A stretch of 64,000 bases of DNA from an uncultured Candidatus Saccharibacteria bacterium (GTDB lineage Bacteria; Patescibacteriota; Minisyncoccia; Minisyncoccales; Staskawiczbacteraceae). A program made the translations under genes and the position numbers. The stretch spans positions 9,955-73,954 of the forward strand of contig CAZREI010000002.1 in the NCBI GenBank assembly GCA_964599285.1, in the 5' to 3' direction. Position 1 is the first letter of the stretch, and every line of letters begins with the position of its first letter. The notes under the pieces were generated by a model, which saw only the letters and a program-made list of their open reading frames with translations, did not search any database and was not told where the DNA came from. This document shows, in pieces, positions 38,523-58,394 of this stretch.

Positions 38523-38660
38523 GAGTAGTTTTTGGTTTTAGGTTCCGGCCGCGCCGCCCGTTGGGCGGCGCGGCCTATTAGTTAAAGTTCTTTAGTTTTT
38601 AGTTTTAAAACTGGAAACTTTTTCAAACTTCAACTTTAAACTATCAACTAATAACTGCGT
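38520..38660. repeat. family O repeat (GC palindrome ggccgcgccgcccgttgggcggcgcggcc plus agtttt/aaactt words)
   Basis: Copies at 51050-51180 and 53815-53925. Confidence 0.8.
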
Positions 38661-38670
38661 TACTATAATC

Positions 38671-40404
38671 TTACCCTATCGGCAGCTCAATGTAAAAAGT
38701 GGATCCCTGGTTTTCGCCCTTGGACTCTGCCCAAATCTTGCCGTTATGAGCTTTGATAATTTGCGTTGCCAGATACAAACCGATGCCGCTGCCAGAAGCA
38801 ACATCCTTGGCCTTTTGATCCCGCTCAAACACGCGGTCAAACAAAGTTTTTAGGCTTTCGGGTGTCATGCCAATACCCGTATCGGCAATGGTAATTAAAA
38901 TGGCGTTTTTGGAATTTTCGTTTTTTGGATTTTCATTGGAAATTGGTAATTGGGAATTGGAATTTATTTTCACCGTCACGCTTCCCTTCGGCGTGTACTT
39001 TATAGAATTATCAATGACATTGAAAATGGCTGCTTTTAATTTTTCTCGGTCGGCGGTGATGCTTACGTCCTTGGCCATTTTTTCCAGCTTCAACACAACC
39101 CCTTTTGATTCGGCCTTAAACGAAAGTTCGTTTACAATTTCATCCAACATTGGTGAAATCGCAATGCCAGGCTTTAATGTTACCGGATTTTTGCCCAACT
39201 GAAACTGCGTCACATCCAAAAAATTGTTGACTTTACGAATCATGTTTTGCGCCACGGCTTGCATTTTTTTGATGACCTCCAGCGTTTTTTTGTTCTGCTT
39301 GCCAAAGGTACCATTAAGCAACAGGTCGGAGTAGCCCATGATGGAAGTCAGCGGCGTTCGCAAATCGTGCTGGGTATTTTGCACAAACTGGTTTTTGATT
39401 TTATCCAACTTTTCCAGTTCTTCATTGGCCTTTTTTTCAACCAGGTAGGCCCGGTCAATATTTTCCTTGGCCCGCTTTTCCGTAACATAAGCGCGCCGAA
39501 CATCCTCAGCCATAGCGGCAATCTTCTCCCGCTGCTGCACCTCCCTCAAAACCCCGCGAATCAATAAAATGCCAAAGATAAGTACTGACAAAAAAACCGA
39601 AGACCGGTAGAAGATGACAACCAAAGAATCCGCCTGAGTGATTTCTAAAAAAGTAACCACCGAAAGTGCGAAGACCAAAGCCGCAGTTCCAATAACTCTG
39701 ATATTGAATAATTTATGCCTAATGATTGCGTAGGAAGTAAATAAAATAAATGGAAAAACAAATAAAGAACCGAATGGTGCAAATCTGGGATTACCAAACA
39801 CTGTTGGTAATATTAAATTAAATAAAATGTGCAAAACAAAAGTAATAGTTACACCTGTAAGCAATAATCTTAACTCACTTTTTTCCGTCGTATTAGTTGC
39901 TTTGATTAATTTTCTACACAATAAATAAATTGCATAGACTATTAAAAAGATAACCGTAATACCAAAAATAATAACACCAAAACCATTGCTAACTTTTTCT
40001 ATTCCTCCACTTTCTGAAAACTGGGTAACGCGCTCAAAAACAAATGGCGTCAAAGTTAGTAAGGTACTTAAAACTACCGCAGGAAGAACAAGTAAATAAT
40101 AAACTTTTGGAAATGAGATTTTTTCTTGAGGGAAAATATAAAAAAGCCTATAAAGAAAAAAGCAATACAAAATTGCAAAAAAAACATGGGCTCTTAAAAC
40201 CCAAATGGCTATATTTGATGGTAATGGTTGAAATATAAGATAATTTAAAATACCCCAAGGGATAGTTGAAATAACGAATGTGAAAAACGCACGATTTACC
40301 GCGCTCTTACTATTACTCAAAATAACAGTAAAACCCAAAACTCCATTTGCTGCTAATGCAATGCCAACAAATAATAGATCAAAATTTTGAAAATAATCAG
40401 TCAT
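38671..40404 (-). CDS. membrane sensor histidine kinase carrying a repeat-derived in-frame insert
   Basis: HisKA H-box QHDLRTPLTSI; HATPase G-boxes. Low-complexity SNENPKNENSKN encoded by an intergenic-type repeat at 38920-38962. Confidence 0.85.
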   Translation of the reverse strand: MTDYFQNFDLLFVGIALAANGVLGFTVILSNSKSAVNRAFFTFVISTIPWGILNYLIFQPLPSNIAIWVLRAHVFFAILYCFFLYRLFYIFPQEKISFPKVYYLLVLPAVVLSTLLTLTPFVFERVTQFSESGGIEKVSNGFGVIIFGITVIFLIVYAIYLLCRKLIKATNTTEKSELRLLLTGVTITFVLHILFNLILPTVFGNPRFAPFGSLFVFPFILFTSYAIIRHKLFNIRVIGTAALVFALSVVTFLEITQADSLVVIFYRSSVFLSVLIFGILLIRGVLREVQQREKIAAMAEDVRRAYVTEKRAKENIDRAYLVEKKANEELEKLDKIKNQFVQNTQHDLRTPLTSIMGYSDLLLNGTFGKQNKKTLEVIKKMQAVAQNMIRKVNNFLDVTQFQLGKNPVTLKPGIAISPMLDEIVNELSFKAESKGVVLKLEKMAKDVSITADREKLKAAIFNVIDNSIKYTPKGSVTVKINSNSQLPISNENPKNENSKNAILITIADTGIGMTPESLKTLFDRVFERDQKAKDVASGSGIGLYLATQIIKAHNGKIWAESKGENQGSTFYIELPIG

Positions 40405-50659: not shown

Positions 50660-51046
50660 TTATTTGGGCAAGGCGCAGCCGGATTTTTGCGCCAGTTCCT
50701 GCAAACTTAATTCGCCCTCTTGTTTTGAATCGTCGGGTAGTTTCCAGGTTGGGTAACCTTCAATTTTTTGATCAGTGCATACCGCGAGCTCTCCGTTGCT
50801 ATCGGGCGTTGAGCACTCAACATAGGGAAGGTACTTTGCTGATTTTCCAAACAGTGACTTTTGGTCCTGGCAGTGCGGACACCAAAAAGCTCCGTACATT
50901 TTCAGTCCCTTGCTGTCAAGGCATTTGGCAAAATCATCCAGCTTGCCCGGCCCCTGGTCTTTTGCCCACAGAAAATAAAATAATCCGGCAACAACCAGCA
51001 AGGCTCCAATGATAATTAACAGGGTATTTTTCACTTTTGAATCCAT
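50660..51046 (-). CDS. membrane-anchored thioredoxin-fold thiol:disulfide oxidoreductase
   Basis: WCPHC. Confidence 0.7.
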   Translation of the reverse strand: MDSKVKNTLLIIIGALLVVAGLFYFLWAKDQGPGKLDDFAKCLDSKGLKMYGAFWCPHCQDQKSLFGKSAKYLPYVECSTPDSNGELAVCTDQKIEGYPTWKLPDDSKQEGELSLQELAQKSGCALPK

Positions 51047-51179
51047 GTAGTTTTTAGTTTTAGGTTCCGGCCGCGTCGCCCGCGGGCGACACGGCCTGTT
51101 AGTTTAGGTTTTTTTGGTTGTTAGTTTTAAACTGGAAACTTTCTAAACTTAAACTTTAAACTTAAAACTGATAACTATT

Positions 51180-51947
51180 TTAGATGAGACTCATCTGATT
51201 TTTCAATGACTCATTACTGATCAGTCTCCGATAAGCGCAATGCTGGCAATCCGGATTTGACGGTGGAATATTGTCCGAATCCAAACACTTTTTAATATTC
51301 ATAATGGCTTGGTCAACCCACGCGCTGTTTCCCTGATACGGAATAATAGACGTTTCAAATTCCAATTTGCCGCCAAACCCGGGCCGATTGCGCGACGCGT
51401 TGGCAAACAAGAAATAACCGACATCAGAAACAGAAAATCCAAGCCTTGCAAAAATCCACTGATACACTTCCATTTGCCTTTTATACCCTATTTTGTACTG
51501 GCTGTCCAACGATATGGGATAATCCGTGCTGGTGGATTTGTAATCCACAATGTGTAGCGCCCCAGTTTTTTGATCCGCCCAAATATCGTCCACAATGCCG
51601 CAGATGTTCAAATTGGTTTCTTTGTGCAACACGCAGGCTCCTAATTTTTTATTGTTGTCATCGCGCCAGATAGCAAAATCGGGATGGTAAAACGGAATAG
51701 CATCAATGCCATATTTTTGCATCAGCGGGTGCGACTTTTTTTGCTCGCGCAGCAGGTCAAACTCATTTTTCAAAAGCGCGTCAACGGCGCTGTTGAGCGA
51801 CCAGCCGGGCATATCGGGCCGCACAATCCCCAACCGCCGGTCCAACCAAAAGCACTGCGGGCATTCCAAAAAAAAGTCAATTTTTGAGCGGCTGACGTTG
51901 AATGGCTCTTTGGATGTCGGATTATAAAGATTGGTTCTGCGCTTTTG
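51180..51947 (-). CDS. PD-(D/E)xK nuclease, Cas4/RecB-like, with Cys cluster
   Basis: DYKST motif; CPQC...CQHC. Confidence 0.55.
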   Translation of the reverse strand, partial: QKRRTNLYNPTSKEPFNVSRSKIDFFLECPQCFWLDRRLGIVRPDMPGWSLNSAVDALLKNEFDLLREQKKSHPLMQKYGIDAIPFYHPDFAIWRDDNNKKLGACVLHKETNLNICGIVDDIWADQKTGALHIVDYKSTSTDYPISLDSQYKIGYKRQMEVYQWIFARLGFSVSDVGYFLFANASRNRPGFGGKLEFETSIIPYQGNSAWVDQAIMNIKKCLDSDNIPPSNPDCQHCAYRRLISNESLKNQMSLI

Positions 51948-51959
51948 CATAAATATGGC

Positions 51960-52095
51960 GACGCTAATTCCCAAGTCCCCAATTACCAATTCCCAATGAA
52001 ATGCTAAAAATCTTAATGCCCAAACCTGTTTTGGAATTTAGGATTTAGGATTTTCATTGGGAATTGGATATTGGGAATTGGAAATTAAGACCAGC
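51960..52095. repeat. family P repeat (gggaattgg/ccaattccc words)
   Basis: Related 53465-53530 and intragenic 38920-38962. Confidence 0.7.
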
Positions 52096-53463: not shown

Positions 53464-53583
53464 ATTTTTAAAAATTCCAAATTACAAGCACCAAATTACA
53501 ATAGCGAATTGGAATTGGGATGCTGCAGTTTGAAAGATTTATATTTTTTCATTATACCACGCTAATCTTGACATGCCTATTGC

Positions 53584-53612
53584 AAGCATTGAAAAAATGG
53601 CTTACTATAAAA
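53584..53612 (+). promoter_or_regulatory. promoter TTGCAA-17-TACTAT upstream of tRNA
   Basis: Spacing consensus. Confidence 0.3.
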
Positions 53613-53646
53613 CTGCGAATAAGGGAAATGGTTCATTAAAAATACA

Positions 53647-54010
53647 TTCCGGTGTAGCTCAGCGGTAGAGCGATTCCCTGTCAACAAGGCAGCGCTCAGA
53701 AGAAACTCTGAGATGAACTTTTCGGGATATCGGTGAACCCTTCGACATTAATTGTCATGGCGATACCGAGGGAACCTAAATAATTTATTTGGGGCTCCGT
53801 AGAGACTAGATACCGAAATGCCTAATGTAGTTATTAGTTAGAAGTTTAAAGTTATAGTTATTAGTTCTTGGTTTAAAACTGAAAACTAAAAAACTTAAAC
53901 TTGGAACTTAAAACCAAAAACTGCCACGGCAAAGATATAGTCCACGCCTTGTGGAAACACAAGAATAAAGTGTAAGGAATGGGTCGTAGGTTCGAATCCT
54001 ACCACCGGAG
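53647..54010 (+). tRNA. tRNA (probably Asn-GUU) split by an about 292-nt group I intron in the anticodon loop
   Basis: 5' half tccggtg-ta-gctcagcggtagagc-g-attcc-ctgt. 3' half taa-ggaat-gggtc-gtagg-ttcgaat-cctac-caccgga-g. Intron has R-like gtagagactaga and exact S element aagatatagtcc, ends in G after exon U, and GCAG can pair CUGU for P1. Confidence 0.65.
53815..53925. repeat. family O repeat copy lodged inside the tRNA intron
   Basis: agttattagtt...aaactgaaaactaaaaaacttaaactt, similar to 38520-38660 and 51050-51180. Confidence 0.6.
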
Positions 54011-54011
54011 C
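53997..54011 (+). repeat. 15-bp direct repeat (tRNA 3' end), left copy
   Basis: tcctaccaccggagc; identical at 58681-58695. Confidence 0.7.
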
Positions 54012-54055
54012 AAGACAGGATTTGCTTCGTACAAATCCTCAATTTTAATTTCATT

Positions 54056-54484
54056 TTGTGCTGTTTTGAGATGAACTTTATGTCGTTGTTGAACTCAAAA
54101 AATATCGTTGCTTTAGGAATCATTGCTTTTTTAGTAGTGAGCATTTGGAGTTTATCTACCATGTGCATAATGGACATGAGCGGCCATATGGTAAATTGCC
54201 CATTCATGAACGGCTCATCAGGTTTTTGCCAGATGACCCTAACCGAGCATATCAGCCTTTGGCAGCAAACCTTTTCTTTGATAAAAATAAAAGATTTGTT
54301 TTTATTGTCTTTGCTGGTTTTTCTTTTTTCTGTTTTAGGTGCTGCGATCAGAAAAACCTACTACCAGTTAGAATCTCAGCCGTTTCGTCACTATTTTTAT
54401 AGGTATCGACCGGAAATAAAATTATTTAACCATCTGGAGCTGGCTTTTTCAGACGGCCTCATCCACTCAAAAATCTACGCTTAA
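54056..54484 (+). CDS. Cys/Met/His-rich membrane protein
   Basis: MSGHMVNCPFMNGSSGFCQM; start uncertain. Confidence 0.4.
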   Translation: MCCFEMNFMSLLNSKNIVALGIIAFLVVSIWSLSTMCIMDMSGHMVNCPFMNGSSGFCQMTLTEHISLWQQTFSLIKIKDLFLLSLLVFLFSVLGAAIRKTYYQLESQPFRHYFYRYRPEIKLFNHLELAFSDGLIHSKIYA

Positions 54485-54612: not shown

Positions 54613-55656
54613 ATGAATAAGGAACAGACCTATTTTATCAAAGGCATGCATTGCTCGGCCTGCGAAATACTCATCGAAAAAAAGCTCCTGGCAATTCCCG
54701 GGGTGAAATCCGTTGATGCTTCCCTATCCAAGGGAGAAGCGATAATTGAATACGATGGAGAAAAGCCGACAACTGAAACGCTCAACGACATGTTCAGGAA
54801 AGACAATTACACTTTTTCTGAAGATCGGCAGTTAGTAAGTAGCCAAGTTCAAGAGAAAAGCAAAGAATCAATAAATCCAACGCTGCTTGGATTGGCAATA
54901 GCCATGGTCATTGTGACAGGATTTTTGGTGCTGGATCGTCTGGGAATATCGGGGTTGCTCAATATCAGCTCAAAATCTTCGGCCATCACTTTTTTTGGTT
55001 TTGGAATCATAGCCGGCTTGTCCTCCTGTGCCGCGTTGGTAGGAGGTATCGTGCTATCTATGTCAAAGCAATGGCTCCAAATGTATAACTCCCAGCAAAG
55101 CAAAATAAAAAAACTCGAGCCGCACTTACTGTTTAATGTTGGCAGGGTTCTATCTTACGCCGTACTGGGCGGAGCGCTGGGATTGATTGGGGGCAGGCTG
55201 CAAATATCGGTAGGGCTTACTACTACATTGGTCATTGTCATTTCTGTCCTCATGATAGGGTTGGGATTGCAAATGCTCGAAGTAAAAGGGTTTCGGAGAT
55301 TTCAATTTTCAATGCCAAGATTCATTACCCGAGGCATTGCCAACGAAAATAATTTTAAGGGAAAGTATATGCCGTTTGTTATGGGGGCCGCCACCTTTTT
55401 TCTGCCTTGCGGTTTTACCATCACCGCTCAAACGATAGCATTGTTATCGGGAAACGCGTTGCAGGGAGGTTTGATTATGGGGTTTTTTGCCTTGGGAACT
55501 TTGCCCATGCTTTTGCTTATTGGATTATCAAGCGTTGCCTTTTCTTCAAAGCCTCGCTTAGCATTAATCTTCTCAAAAGTTGCCGGGTTCTTGGTGTTGT
55601 TCTTTGCCTTGTATAATATTTACCATCAATTAATACTATTAGGATTAATCAAATAA
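54613..55656 (+). CDS. HMA domain fused to CcdA/DsbD-like membrane domain
   Basis: GMHCSACE metal-binding motif; Cys in TM helices. Confidence 0.6.
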   Translation: MNKEQTYFIKGMHCSACEILIEKKLLAIPGVKSVDASLSKGEAIIEYDGEKPTTETLNDMFRKDNYTFSEDRQLVSSQVQEKSKESINPTLLGLAIAMVIVTGFLVLDRLGISGLLNISSKSSAITFFGFGIIAGLSSCAALVGGIVLSMSKQWLQMYNSQQSKIKKLEPHLLFNVGRVLSYAVLGGALGLIGGRLQISVGLTTTLVIVISVLMIGLGLQMLEVKGFRRFQFSMPRFITRGIANENNFKGKYMPFVMGAATFFLPCGFTITAQTIALLSGNALQGGLIMGFFALGTLPMLLLIGLSSVAFSSKPRLALIFSKVAGFLVLFFALYNIYHQLILLGLIK

Positions 55657-55661
55657 AAATT

Positions 55662-56078
55662 ATGCAAAAAAATAACCTCATTCAGCCGATATTAATTTCA
55701 GTGATCCTGATTTGCGTACTCATTTCAGGATATATTCTTGTAACTTCAAACAAGCAAACTGCAAGCCAGGGCGCGAGCGCCTTGGCACCCATGGTCAATG
55801 GCAAGCAGCTAATCCAAATGACGGTAAATGCGGTAAAATATAATCCCAATTCATTTACCGTAAAAGCCGGCATTCCGGTAAGCTGGCAAATTACTTCATC
55901 GGGCGAACCGGGATGCGATAGCGGAGAGGTAATCGCGCGCGGTTTAACTGATCCGATTTTTTTAAATCCCAATCAGGGGCAAGTTACTATCAAAGAATTC
56001 ACTGCGCAAACTCCAGGCACTTATCAGTTCGGTTGCCCGATGGGTATGGTACTTGGCACCATTGAAGTAGTAAATTAA
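55662..56078 (+). CDS. cupredoxin-like protein
   Basis: GTYQFGCPMGMVLG C-terminal ligand loop. Confidence 0.5.
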   Translation: MQKNNLIQPILISVILICVLISGYILVTSNKQTASQGASALAPMVNGKQLIQMTVNAVKYNPNSFTVKAGIPVSWQITSSGEPGCDSGEVIARGLTDPIFLNPNQGQVTIKEFTAQTPGTYQFGCPMGMVLGTIEVVN

Positions 56079-56090
56079 CATCAAAAATCC

Positions 56091-58394
56091 ATGACTCATA
56101 AAACATATCAAATTAAGGGAATGCATTGCGCTTCTTGCGCGAGCATCATTGAGATGGCTTTTAAGGAAACGGAAGGAGTCGCCTCCGCGCAAGTCAACTA
56201 CGGCACGGAAACCGCCAAAGTTTCTTTTGATCAATCAAAAACAAGTGTGGAAGCGCTTTCAAAGAAAATAGAACCTTATGGCTATTCCATTATCATGCCA
56301 ACGGCGGAAGAAATGGGCATGTCTACTGATGAACACGCCGCTCACACCGGCATCGGGCAATCAAAAAAAGAAAAACTAAAGGAAATTGCGGAGCAAAAAA
56401 CCATGGTCATGTCGGCCATTCCGCTGGCCATTGTCAGTATTTTTGCTATGACTTGGGAAACGCTGGCTCAATTCAATTTAGTGGCGCAGCAGCCGTTTGC
56501 CGTGGCAGAATTTTTTAGTCACCTACTACCGATTATGGCTACCTACGTTTTGTTTGTGGTGGGAAAGCCGTATTTACTCGGCATGTATCGGTTCCTGCGC
56601 TATGGCAAAGCCAATATGGATACATTGATTGGGCTCGGTACTTCAGTCGCTTTCCTGTACAGCTTTATTGTTACTGCGTTCACCAATTCAATGGCTCATA
56701 CTTATTACGATGTCACCATTGTGGTTATTACGTTCATTGCTCTGGGCAAATATCTTGAAGCCCGGGCTAAACTAAAAACAGGAGATGCTATTGAAAAGCT
56801 GCTGAACCTTCAAGCAAAAACGGCCTTAGTGATCCGGGACAGTAAAGAGCAAAAAGTTTCTATTAATGATGTGGTGCATGGGGATTTATTAATAGTAAAA
56901 CCGGGAGGAAGAATTCCCGTTGACGGAACTATTACCCAGGGAACTTCTTTTGTTGACCAAGCCATGATCACCGGCGAGCCCATGCTCGTTGAGAAAAAAT
57001 TGGGAGACCAAGTGGTTGCCGGCACCATCAATACCACTGGCAGCTTCACATTCAAAGCCACAAAAGTTGGGTCTGAAACGTTGCTATCTCATATTGTGAA
57101 AATGGTTCAGGAGGCACAGGGAAGCAAAGCTCCCATCCAGGCCTTGGCCGATAAAATCTCGGGCGTATTTGTGCCGGTAGTACTGGTGATTTCTTTTATT
57201 ACGCTTGGAATATGGCTTACGATTGGAACTCATTACCTAGGTTTTGCTGAAGCATTATCCTTCGGCCTAACTTCGTTTGTGGGAATCTTAGTCATCGCCT
57301 GTCCATGTGCTTTGGGATTGGCAACACCGACGGCAATTATTGTCGGCGTAGGCAAAGGAGCCAAAGAAGGCATTCTCATTAAAGATGCGGCAACGCTGGA
57401 AAAACTTCACAAGGTAAATACCGTGGTTATGGATAAAACCGGGACGATCACCAAAGGAAAAACAGAGCTTACGGACATTAAGAATTATTCCTTCCTTCGC
57501 CAAGGCTTCGGCGGGCAGGCAAAACTGGATGATAAAAAAGTAATATCCATCCTGGCTTCGCTCGAAAAAAATTCAGAGCATCCGATCGCCTCCGCAATCA
57601 CTAACTACGCAAAAGAAAAATCCATTGAAACAATAACGGTAGAAAAATTCGAAATCATCAAAGGCAAGGGGCTCAAAGGAATTGTTGATGGCAAGGAATA
57701 CTTCGCCGGAAATGCAAAACTTATCTTTGATCTAAAAATTCCTTTTGATGCCAAAAGCATTGAAACGGAAACCCGACAAGGGAAAACGCCGGTGATTCTT
57801 GCAACCCAAAAAGAGATCATCGGCGTCGTAATGATTGCTGACGCCATAAAACCAGAAGCAATCGATGCTGTAAAAAATCTGCACAAGATGGGCATTAAAA
57901 TCGTGATGCTTACCGGCGATGATAAAAATACCGCACAGGCAATTGCTAAAGAAGTTGGCATCGATAAAGTGATCTCGGAGGTGTTACCTGAAGATAAACT
58001 CAAAACTATCAAGGAGCTGCAGCAGAAAGGCGCGGTGATTGCCATGGCAGGTGACGGAGTAAATGATGCTCCGGCGCTAGCACAAGCTGACGTCGGCATT
58101 GCCATGGGGACAGGCACAGATGTTGCTATTGAAACCGCTGGCATTACACTTTTGCACGGCGATATTTCAAAGCTGGTCAAAGCGGTGCGCCTTTCAAAAA
58201 TGACGATGCTTGGCATCAAGCAAAATCTCTTCTGGGCGTTTATTTATAACATAGCAGGAATCCCGATCGCCGCCGGCATCTTATATCCATTCTTTGGAAT
58301 ATTGCTTTCACCGGTGTTTGCGGGATTGGCCATGGCATTTTCAAGCGTAAGCGTGGTTGGAAATAGTTTGAGGATTAGAGGGAAGAAATTGTAG
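56091..58394 (+). CDS. copA: Cu+-exporting P1B-type ATPase
   Basis: GMHCASCA, CPC, DKTGT, GDGVNDAP. Confidence 0.95.
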   Translation: MTHKTYQIKGMHCASCASIIEMAFKETEGVASAQVNYGTETAKVSFDQSKTSVEALSKKIEPYGYSIIMPTAEEMGMSTDEHAAHTGIGQSKKEKLKEIAEQKTMVMSAIPLAIVSIFAMTWETLAQFNLVAQQPFAVAEFFSHLLPIMATYVLFVVGKPYLLGMYRFLRYGKANMDTLIGLGTSVAFLYSFIVTAFTNSMAHTYYDVTIVVITFIALGKYLEARAKLKTGDAIEKLLNLQAKTALVIRDSKEQKVSINDVVHGDLLIVKPGGRIPVDGTITQGTSFVDQAMITGEPMLVEKKLGDQVVAGTINTTGSFTFKATKVGSETLLSHIVKMVQEAQGSKAPIQALADKISGVFVPVVLVISFITLGIWLTIGTHYLGFAEALSFGLTSFVGILVIACPCALGLATPTAIIVGVGKGAKEGILIKDAATLEKLHKVNTVVMDKTGTITKGKTELTDIKNYSFLRQGFGGQAKLDDKKVISILASLEKNSEHPIASAITNYAKEKSIETITVEKFEIIKGKGLKGIVDGKEYFAGNAKLIFDLKIPFDAKSIETETRQGKTPVILATQKEIIGVVMIADAIKPEAIDAVKNLHKMGIKIVMLTGDDKNTAQAIAKEVGIDKVISEVLPEDKLKTIKELQQKGAVIAMAGDGVNDAPALAQADVGIAMGTGTDVAIETAGITLLHGDISKLVKAVRLSKMTMLGIKQNLFWAFIYNIAGIPIAAGILYPFFGILLSPVFAGLAMAFSSVSVVGNSLRIRGKKL

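Follow-up and report, generated by a model that had tools for sequence, protein, structure and literature searches.

Does the DNA analysed here, a stretch of 64 kb called the window in what follows, contain a tRNA gene that standard searches overlook, and what is the sequence that interrupts this gene? With default settings, ARAGORN detected no tRNA over the whole 64-kb window, and Rfam at the gathering threshold gave no match over the same length. Both halves of one tRNA, proposed in an earlier note on this DNA, can be read directly in the sequence. They are listed here with the element that separates them and with a hairpin that follows them.

53648 to 53681, plus strand: 5' exon of tRNA-Asn (sequence read; the joined exons are tRNA-Asn(gtt) according to ARAGORN)
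53682 to 53972, plus strand: group I intron of 291 nt without ORF (match to Rfam RF00028; aligned with 75 homologues)
53973 to 54010, plus strand: 3' exon of tRNA-Asn (sequence read; ARAGORN on the joined exons)
54017 to 54039, plus strand: terminator-like hairpin with a T-rich tail (consensus scan only)

The 5' exon (TCCGGTG TA GCTC AGCGGTA GAGC G ATTCC CUGU) is composed of the acceptor strand, the D arm, the 5' strand of the anticodon stem and the loop positions C32, U33, G34 and U35. The 3' exon (UAA GGAAT GGGTC GTAGG TTCGAAT CCTAC CACCGGA G) contains U36, A37 and A38, the 3' strand of the anticodon stem, the variable loop, the T arm, the acceptor strand and G73; the CCA end is not encoded. 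Once joined, the exons are recognized by ARAGORN as a tRNA-Asn(gtt) of 73 bases that forms a perfect cloverleaf with the anticodon GUU, and the intron splits this anticodon between U35 and U36. The earlier note had placed the start at 53647, one base too early, its remaining coordinates being right within one base; it had estimated the insert at about 292 nt, against an actual 291 nt, and had correctly positioned it in the anticodon loop. The locus is very probably a tRNA-Asn(GUU) gene of a Patescibacteria/CPR bacterium, split between U35 and U36 by an ORF-less self-splicing group I intron.

The host of the split gene is a Patescibacteria/CPR bacterium. Downstream of the tRNA, a copper-handling cluster (54613-58394) is composed of an HMA-DsbD_2 fusion, a cupredoxin-like protein and a Cu-type P-type ATPase, and the named homologues of this ATPase (56091-58394) belong to Taylorbacteria, Portnoybacteria, Paceibacterota and similar groups. 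Genes of a thioredoxin-like protein, a DsbB-like protein and a PD-(D/E)XK nuclease lie upstream on the other strand. The terminator-like hairpin (AGGATTTG...CAAATCCT) starts 7 nt past the 3' end of the tRNA, and the region upstream of the tRNA-Asn yielded no convincing promoter of the sigma-70 type.

The nature of the insert was established with the Rfam model Intron_gpI (RF00028), a check that the earlier note had suggested. Run with an E-value threshold on the short stretch 53550-54100, the model matches the positions 53666-53964 from end to end (model positions 1-253, full length) with a score of 43.4 bits and an E-value of 8.3e-10, well outside what chance would give. This score does not reach the gathering score of 50 bits, and therefore the standard Rfam and tRNA scans of the window report nothing. 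In the Rfam alignment, about 100 nt are treated as inserted into the loop of P8, the helix that follows the 3' strand of P3 and precedes the S element, and this insertion probably lowers the score of the window copy. Among seven homologues that lack the P8 insert, four reach 55 to 100 bits and three remain below the gathering score, so that the CPR subfamily lies near the threshold even without an insert.

A model of the helices P1 to P9 was drafted on the window sequence with the Rfam alignment as guide, and projected onto a MAFFT alignment of 76 distinct introns of at most 300 nt, the window copy included (alignment A2). The elements of the model are the following.

53678 to 53692, plus strand: P1, formed by 53678-53682 (exon C-U-G-U and intron C1) with 53688-53692 (G-G-C-A-G), loop of 5 nt
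53695 to 53712, plus strand: P2 hairpin, 53695-53700 with 53707-53712, L2 GAAA at 53702-53705
53718 to 53725, plus strand: 5' strand of P3, paired with 53813-53820; changes on both sides at 6 of 8 pairs
53730 to 53769, plus strand: P4 enclosing P5; P4 is 53730-53735 with 53764-53769, P5 is 53739-53740 with 53759-53760
53744 to 53747 with 53753 to 53756, plus strand: predicted distal stem of P5 (reading of the window sequence only)
53770 to 53798, plus strand: P6, 53770-53771 with 53797-53798 and 53775-53778 with 53790-53793
53799 to 53810, plus strand: R element GTAGAGACTAGA, invariant in 76 of 76; the 5' strand of P7 is G53802 with 53804-53808
53813 to 53820, plus strand: 3' strand of P3, paired with 53718-53725
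53821 to 53929, plus strand: P8, CC/GG pairs 53821-53822 with 53928-53929, receptor-like loop UAAU / CAC and a long extension
53932 to 53943, plus strand: S element AAGATATAGTCC; the 3' strand of P7 is 53938-53943
53947 to 53964, plus strand: P9 hairpin, L9 GAAA at 53954-53957; changes on both sides at 6 of 7 pairs

In the 76 sequences, 88.6% of the cells of the model form standard pairs, against 35-43% when the 3' partners are slid by 1 to 3 columns. The covariation score is 0.494 as modelled versus 0.07-0.14 for the slid versions, none of 500 shuffles reaches the observed value, and changes on both sides are seen in 38 of the 56 pairs. The CG, UA, GC and UG pairs of P1 are each present in 76 of 76 sequences, whereas the first pair internal to the intron covaries (GC in 39 sequences, AU in 15, CG in 14, UG in 3 and GU in 2). 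All eight pairs of P2 change on both sides and L2 is GAAA in 66 of 76 sequences; the window copy itself has two mismatched end pairs in P2 and one U.U in P3. P4 is paired at 100%, five of its six pairs being swapped on both sides, largely between two subfamilies, and P5 is paired at 99%. The outer pairs of P6 are paired at 100%, one of them with a compensatory change, and its inner stem at 73%. The loop L9 is GAAA in 47 sequences and GTAA in 18. GAAA tetraloops in L2 and L9, together with P8 motifs of the type CCUAA...NAUGG, would be compatible with the subgroup IC3 of tRNA introns, which is characterized by a compact core without P5abc, a short P2 and the tetraloop contacts L2-P8 and L9-P5.

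These data bear out the group I assignment of the earlier note, through the Rfam match and through covariation for P1, P2, P3, P4, P5, P6, P8 and P9. The S element that it had reported is found exactly at 53932-53943 and the R-like element at 53799-53810. The core from P3 to P7, which it had named as the test of its reading, can be built: P3 to P6 covary and P7, which gives no covariation evidence because its pairs are invariant, is able to form. The conservation of the S element and of the terminal G among the homologues arises by construction, both being part of the search pattern, while the R element, partner of the S element, is invariant and lies outside this pattern.

The splice sites follow from the same model. 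The intron is preceded by the exon base U53681 and its last base is G53972 (omega-G), directly before UAA, which agrees with the exon U and the final G noted previously. The GCAG that had been proposed to pair with the exon CUGU is located at 53689-53692, facing 53678-53681, with U53681 opposite G53689 as a wobble at the 5' splice site. The constancy of this U.G wobble (76 of 76 sequences) and the covariation of the first intron base with the base that precedes the guide G place the 5' splice site firmly after U35. The 5' exon supplies C32-U33-G34-U35 to the anticodon loop, which needs U36-A37-A38 in addition to reach 7 nt, and the intron therefore ends at G53972.

Homologues of this intron were searched in a scan of one genome per species with the pattern AGATATAGTC-N(15-45)-G-TAA-N13-GGTTCRANTCC, in which a part of the S element (AGATATAGTC) is followed, after a spacer, by the terminal G and then by the beginning of the 3' half of a class I tRNA. 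At least 120 loci were recovered. Among the 120 matches listed, and according to the titles of the records, about 68 belong to Patescibacteria/CPR, 20 to Omnitrophota and 6 to Planctomycetales; about 12 are MAGs labelled Gammaproteobacteria or Bdellovibrionales, and the remainder is unclassified. The layout tRNA-Asn CUGU / intron / UAA could be rebuilt by script in 107 of the 120 matches listed, with introns of 185 to 618 nt. The spliced products of these 107 loci and of the window were all identified by ARAGORN as tRNA-Asn(gtt) (108 of 108), which, together with the constant U.G wobble, upholds the tRNA-Asn(GUU) split after position 35 that the earlier note had preferred. Being common to at least 107 other genomes, this layout represents the norm in a large family to which the window copy belongs. 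Two loci from Phycisphaerae, L009 and L053, were rejected as members, no tRNA-Asn having been rebuilt from them and their acceptor end being different (...GGCGGCT); they probably reflect either chance or a group I intron in a different setting.

Two structural subfamilies can be distinguished in alignment A2 (76 loci), with fully compensated P4 and P6 strands. The CPR type is GGGATAAC-GGTGAA...ATACCGTGGGAACC and the type of Omnitrophota and Planctomycetales is GGAGAATTG-CTGGAA...AATCAGCAGCCGAGCC. The first type obtains 43 to 61 bits with Rfam, and the second can score higher (99.7 bits for L016). Most MAGs with a Gammaproteobacteria or Bdellovibrionales label have an intron of the CPR type, and these labels may therefore be unreliable.

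Among the matches listed, 27 relatives have introns of more than 380 nt, and most of these hold about 310 extra nt in the loop of P1. In most of the 27, this loop contains an ORF of about 105 amino acids with the motifs CxxC...HH...CxxCH; the introns that bear the ORF measure about 500-620 nt (L008, L011, L026, L028, L031, L039, L040, L043 and others). The three ORFs tested all matched the Pfam family HNH with E-values of about 1e-3, below the Pfam cut-off, and by its motifs the P1-loop ORF is presumably a homing endonuclease of the HNH type. Such an endonuclease, if confirmed, would explain the spread of the intron across phyla. The window intron has no endonuclease ORF. A viral-contig collection scanned with the intron/tRNA pattern gave no match, and hence no sign of a phage vector.

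The particularity of the window copy is its P8, the interior of which measures 105 nt for a family median of about 17 and is the longest of the 76. Its distal part corresponds to a repeat that is also found twice between genes of the window.

53827 to 53924, plus strand: nested A+T-rich palindromic repeat of 98 nt in the distal part of P8 (alignment to two intergenic copies)
38527 to 38662, minus strand: intergenic copy of the repeat, directly past the stop of the minus-strand ORF 38671-40404
51049 to 51183, minus strand: intergenic copy of the repeat, between the minus-strand ORFs 51180-51989 and 50660-51046

The related copies were detected by blastn with short words; an exact or near-exact search with the first 40 nt of the repeat recovered the intron copy only. 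The intergenic form is an A+T-rich palindrome of about 130 nt, with a central G+C-rich hairpin of 29 nt (GGCCGCG...CGCGGCC in both intergenic copies), placed directly past gene ends. This G+C hairpin has no U tract in the transcribed direction and is therefore not a classical terminator. When metagenomes were scanned with the conserved 3' end of the repeat, one contig was detected (L122, 1108-1230), in which the repeat again lies past a gene end and includes the G+C hairpin. The orientation with respect to transcription is identical in the four copies, which with n=4 is weak evidence. Dispersed copies (three in the 64-kb window, a fourth in a metagenome contig) and inverted-repeat ends are traits shared with MITE/REP-like elements.

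The repeat leaves the ribozyme core untouched, since it prolongs P8 beyond the receptor-like internal loop. This UAAU/CAC loop sits where most relatives have motifs resembling CCUAA...UAUGG. With the insert, P8 folds as one continuous imperfect hairpin of -25.2 kcal/mol (z = -3.0), and none of 200 shuffles is as stable. Foreign hairpin DNA of about 100 nt is evidently tolerated at the tip of P8. The repeat that the earlier note had seen in a peripheral part of the intron, and had measured at 100 nt, is this element of 98 nt that extends the tip of P8. Additional hairpins are observed elsewhere in the family: in P8 (L025, L093), between the P3 and P4 strands (L082, L112) and after the R element (L042, L045, L056, L066, L088). 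With members other than the window copy extended at several distinct peripheral positions, nested insertion is a recurrent event in the tRNA-Asn intron family.

That the repeat was inserted into the tip of P8 is the reading that we favour as the more probable. It competes with the view that the long P8 arm is native or ancestral, the intergenic copies being derived from this arm or A+T-rich hairpins having converged. P8 is variable, and two other members have interiors of 87 and 61 nt; no target-site duplication is seen at 53827/53924; the intron copy is devoid of the G+C hairpin of the other copies. The metagenome scan for the exon-intron junction GATTCCCTGTCAACAAGGCAGC gave no match, and a contig encoding a Cu-ATPase of 90% identity stops short of the tRNA, so that no close relative was recovered for an empty-site comparison. 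All of this would suit a native arm, which we nevertheless regard as unlikely in view of the intergenic copies. The positions 53827-53924 align over the full length, with 76% mean column identity, to the reverse complements of 38527-38662 and 51049-51183, copies located 15 kb and 2.6 kb away, and the ends also match (GTAGTTATTAGTT... and ...AACCAAAAACTRC). The further copy past a gene end lies in an unrelated metagenome contig, and the repeat is absent from 75 of the 75 aligned homologues.

The insertion into P8 raises in turn the question of the activity of the intron. Judged by its sequence, the window intron probably still splices and is active. Of the 62 columns whose conservation reaches 90% among the other 75 sequences, it deviates at 2: G replaces A at 53762 in J5/4, and A replaces G at 53964, the latter change breaking the outermost pair of P9. 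A decaying intron, dead for splicing, would make the locus a tRNA pseudogene with the tRNA-Asn supplied by another gene. These two altered positions could be taken in this sense, as could the Rfam score under gathering, the 98-nt foreign insert that adjoins the probable receptor of L2, and the 3' half of this receptor, CACGG instead of the commonest UAUGG; moreover, the coverage of the genome is 64 kb only, and a second intact tRNA-Asn that relaxes selection may be present outside the window. Such a decay is nonetheless quite improbable. The 60 highly conserved columns kept out of 62 are within the normal range of the family (0 to 6 deviations), every core helix is intact, L2 and L9 are both GAAA as in most members, and CACGG is shared by 4 of the 76 sequences, including that of the window. 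The exons form a cloverleaf without defect and the insert prolongs P8 as a continuous helix with no disruption. CPR genomes are small and their tRNAs are usually single-copy, which also counts against a relic. The remaining alternative concerns the boundaries: applied with the option -i to 53601-54060, ARAGORN proposes a tRNA-Thr(tgt) with i(33,291). The gene would then be a tRNA-Thr(UGU) in which the 291 nt of intron are shifted upstream by two bases and follow U33. This solution, too, has a U at the end of the 5' exon and a G (53970) closing the intron, but it can hardly be right and was discarded on the geometry of P1. ARAGORN contains no group I model; U33 pairs in P1 with A53691 and not with a G, the U.G lying at U35/G53689 in all 76 sequences; and the base found two positions before the terminal G in the homologues is not a conserved G (ends ...CTTG, ...TACG, ...ACATG and ...ATTCG). 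The acceptor features U1-A72 and G73 presumably fit Asn rather than Thr.

For the preferred reading, a tRNA-Asn gene with an active intron after U35, the following course of events can be proposed. The precursor would be transcribed as a single RNA, in which the anticodon stem of 5 bp (ATTCC/GGAAT) would keep the exons together. The guide GCAG would pair with the exon CUGU in P1, with the U.G wobble at the splice site, and a free guanosine bound in P7 would attack after U35. G53972 would then occupy the same P7 pocket and the exons would be joined, giving the anticodon loop CUGUUAA and an exon junction that would read ...GAUUCCCUGUUAAGGAAU.... The GAAA loops L2 and L9 would probably dock on the receptor-like motifs of P8 and P5. 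The 98-nt palindromic repeat, whose family is otherwise located past gene ends, would have been inserted at the tip of P8.

Since the default tRNA and Rfam scans are blind to such genes, this genome and many genomes of CPR, Omnitrophota and Planctomycetales appear to be without tRNA-Asn. This apparent absence distorts completeness checks and inferences of a reduced translation machinery. With the window copy, a very widespread intron family gains a further well-preserved member, at a site that the classical literature on bacterial tRNA introns is not known to list. This does not change the understanding of group I intron function, and the main practical value lies in annotating the tRNA-Asn of CPR bacteria and of neighbouring phyla. 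Although real, the finding is ordinary, and its sole local twist is the repeat nested in P8. A broader interpretation, tentative and on the whole rather doubtful, would be that the 35/36 intron represents a distinct and undescribed lineage of tRNA group I introns in Patescibacteria, Omnitrophota and Planctomycetales, spread by the P1-loop HNH endonuclease and responsible for a systematic 'missing tRNA-Asn' artefact, the window offering the first lineage-specific palindromic repeat nested in P8. If this were true, the loss of the G+C hairpin could reflect selection against a structure harmful in a tRNA precursor.

That tRNA genes of CPR bacteria can contain group I introns has been reported before. 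Some tRNAs of circularised CPR genomes contain group I introns that are hard to detect (Lui et al. 2021, PMC8172020), and the window intron resembles these introns in host group, kind of element and poor detectability. The same problem of detection is described for tRNA-fMet and tRNA-Ile2 in the paper on tRNAscan-SE 2.0. According to its citation in PMC12641178, the preprint of Nakagawa et al. 2025 (bioRxiv 10.1101/2025.07.03.662931) deals with tRNA introns of Patescibacteria and a 'novel insertion site'. No nested repeat is mentioned by Lui et al. or in the citation of Nakagawa et al. 2025. A search of full-text literature gave no description of a bacterial tRNA-Asn group I intron, the matches being papers on organelles or unrelated subjects. 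The tRNA-Asn intron family is very large and poorly annotated, and its description is possibly only recent.

The best known introns of this kind are those of the cyanobacterial and plastid tRNA-Leu(UAA), the cyanobacterial tRNA-fMet, the Azoarcus tRNA-Ile(CAU) and the Agrobacterium tRNA-Arg(CCU), which are likewise small group I introns (about 200-300 nt) of the anticodon loop. The window intron shares with these bacterial tRNA introns near-consensus R and S elements, GAAA loops on P2 and P9 and receptor-like motifs in P8 and P5. The classical sites of insertion are 34/35 in tRNA-Leu(UAA) and 36/37 in tRNA-fMet, tRNA-Ile and tRNA-Arg. The insertion site that the earlier note had called unusual does differ from these sites, whereas 35/36 is the rule within its own large family. 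Also in common with these introns, P10 is absent and the exons are held by the anticodon stem, a requirement that Zaug et al. 1993, according to the listing in PMC3984707, demonstrated with the Anabaena intron. Unlike them, the window intron resides in a tRNA-Asn(GUU), split at 35/36, and its family is hosted by Patescibacteria, Omnitrophota and Planctomycetales instead of cyanobacteria and proteobacteria.

A parallel for the nested repeat is offered by the tRNA-Leu(UAA) introns of Nostoc, whose peripheral helices contain repeat arrays or inserted elements, with heptanucleotide arrays in P6b. In these introns as in that of the window, repetitive DNA of the host is accommodated in a peripheral helix and the core remains intact. 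They differ in that the window has a single palindromic element of 98 nt in P8, where Nostoc has heptanucleotide arrays in P6b, and in that the repeat family of the window, unlike the Nostoc arrays, is otherwise located past gene ends and carries a G+C hairpin.
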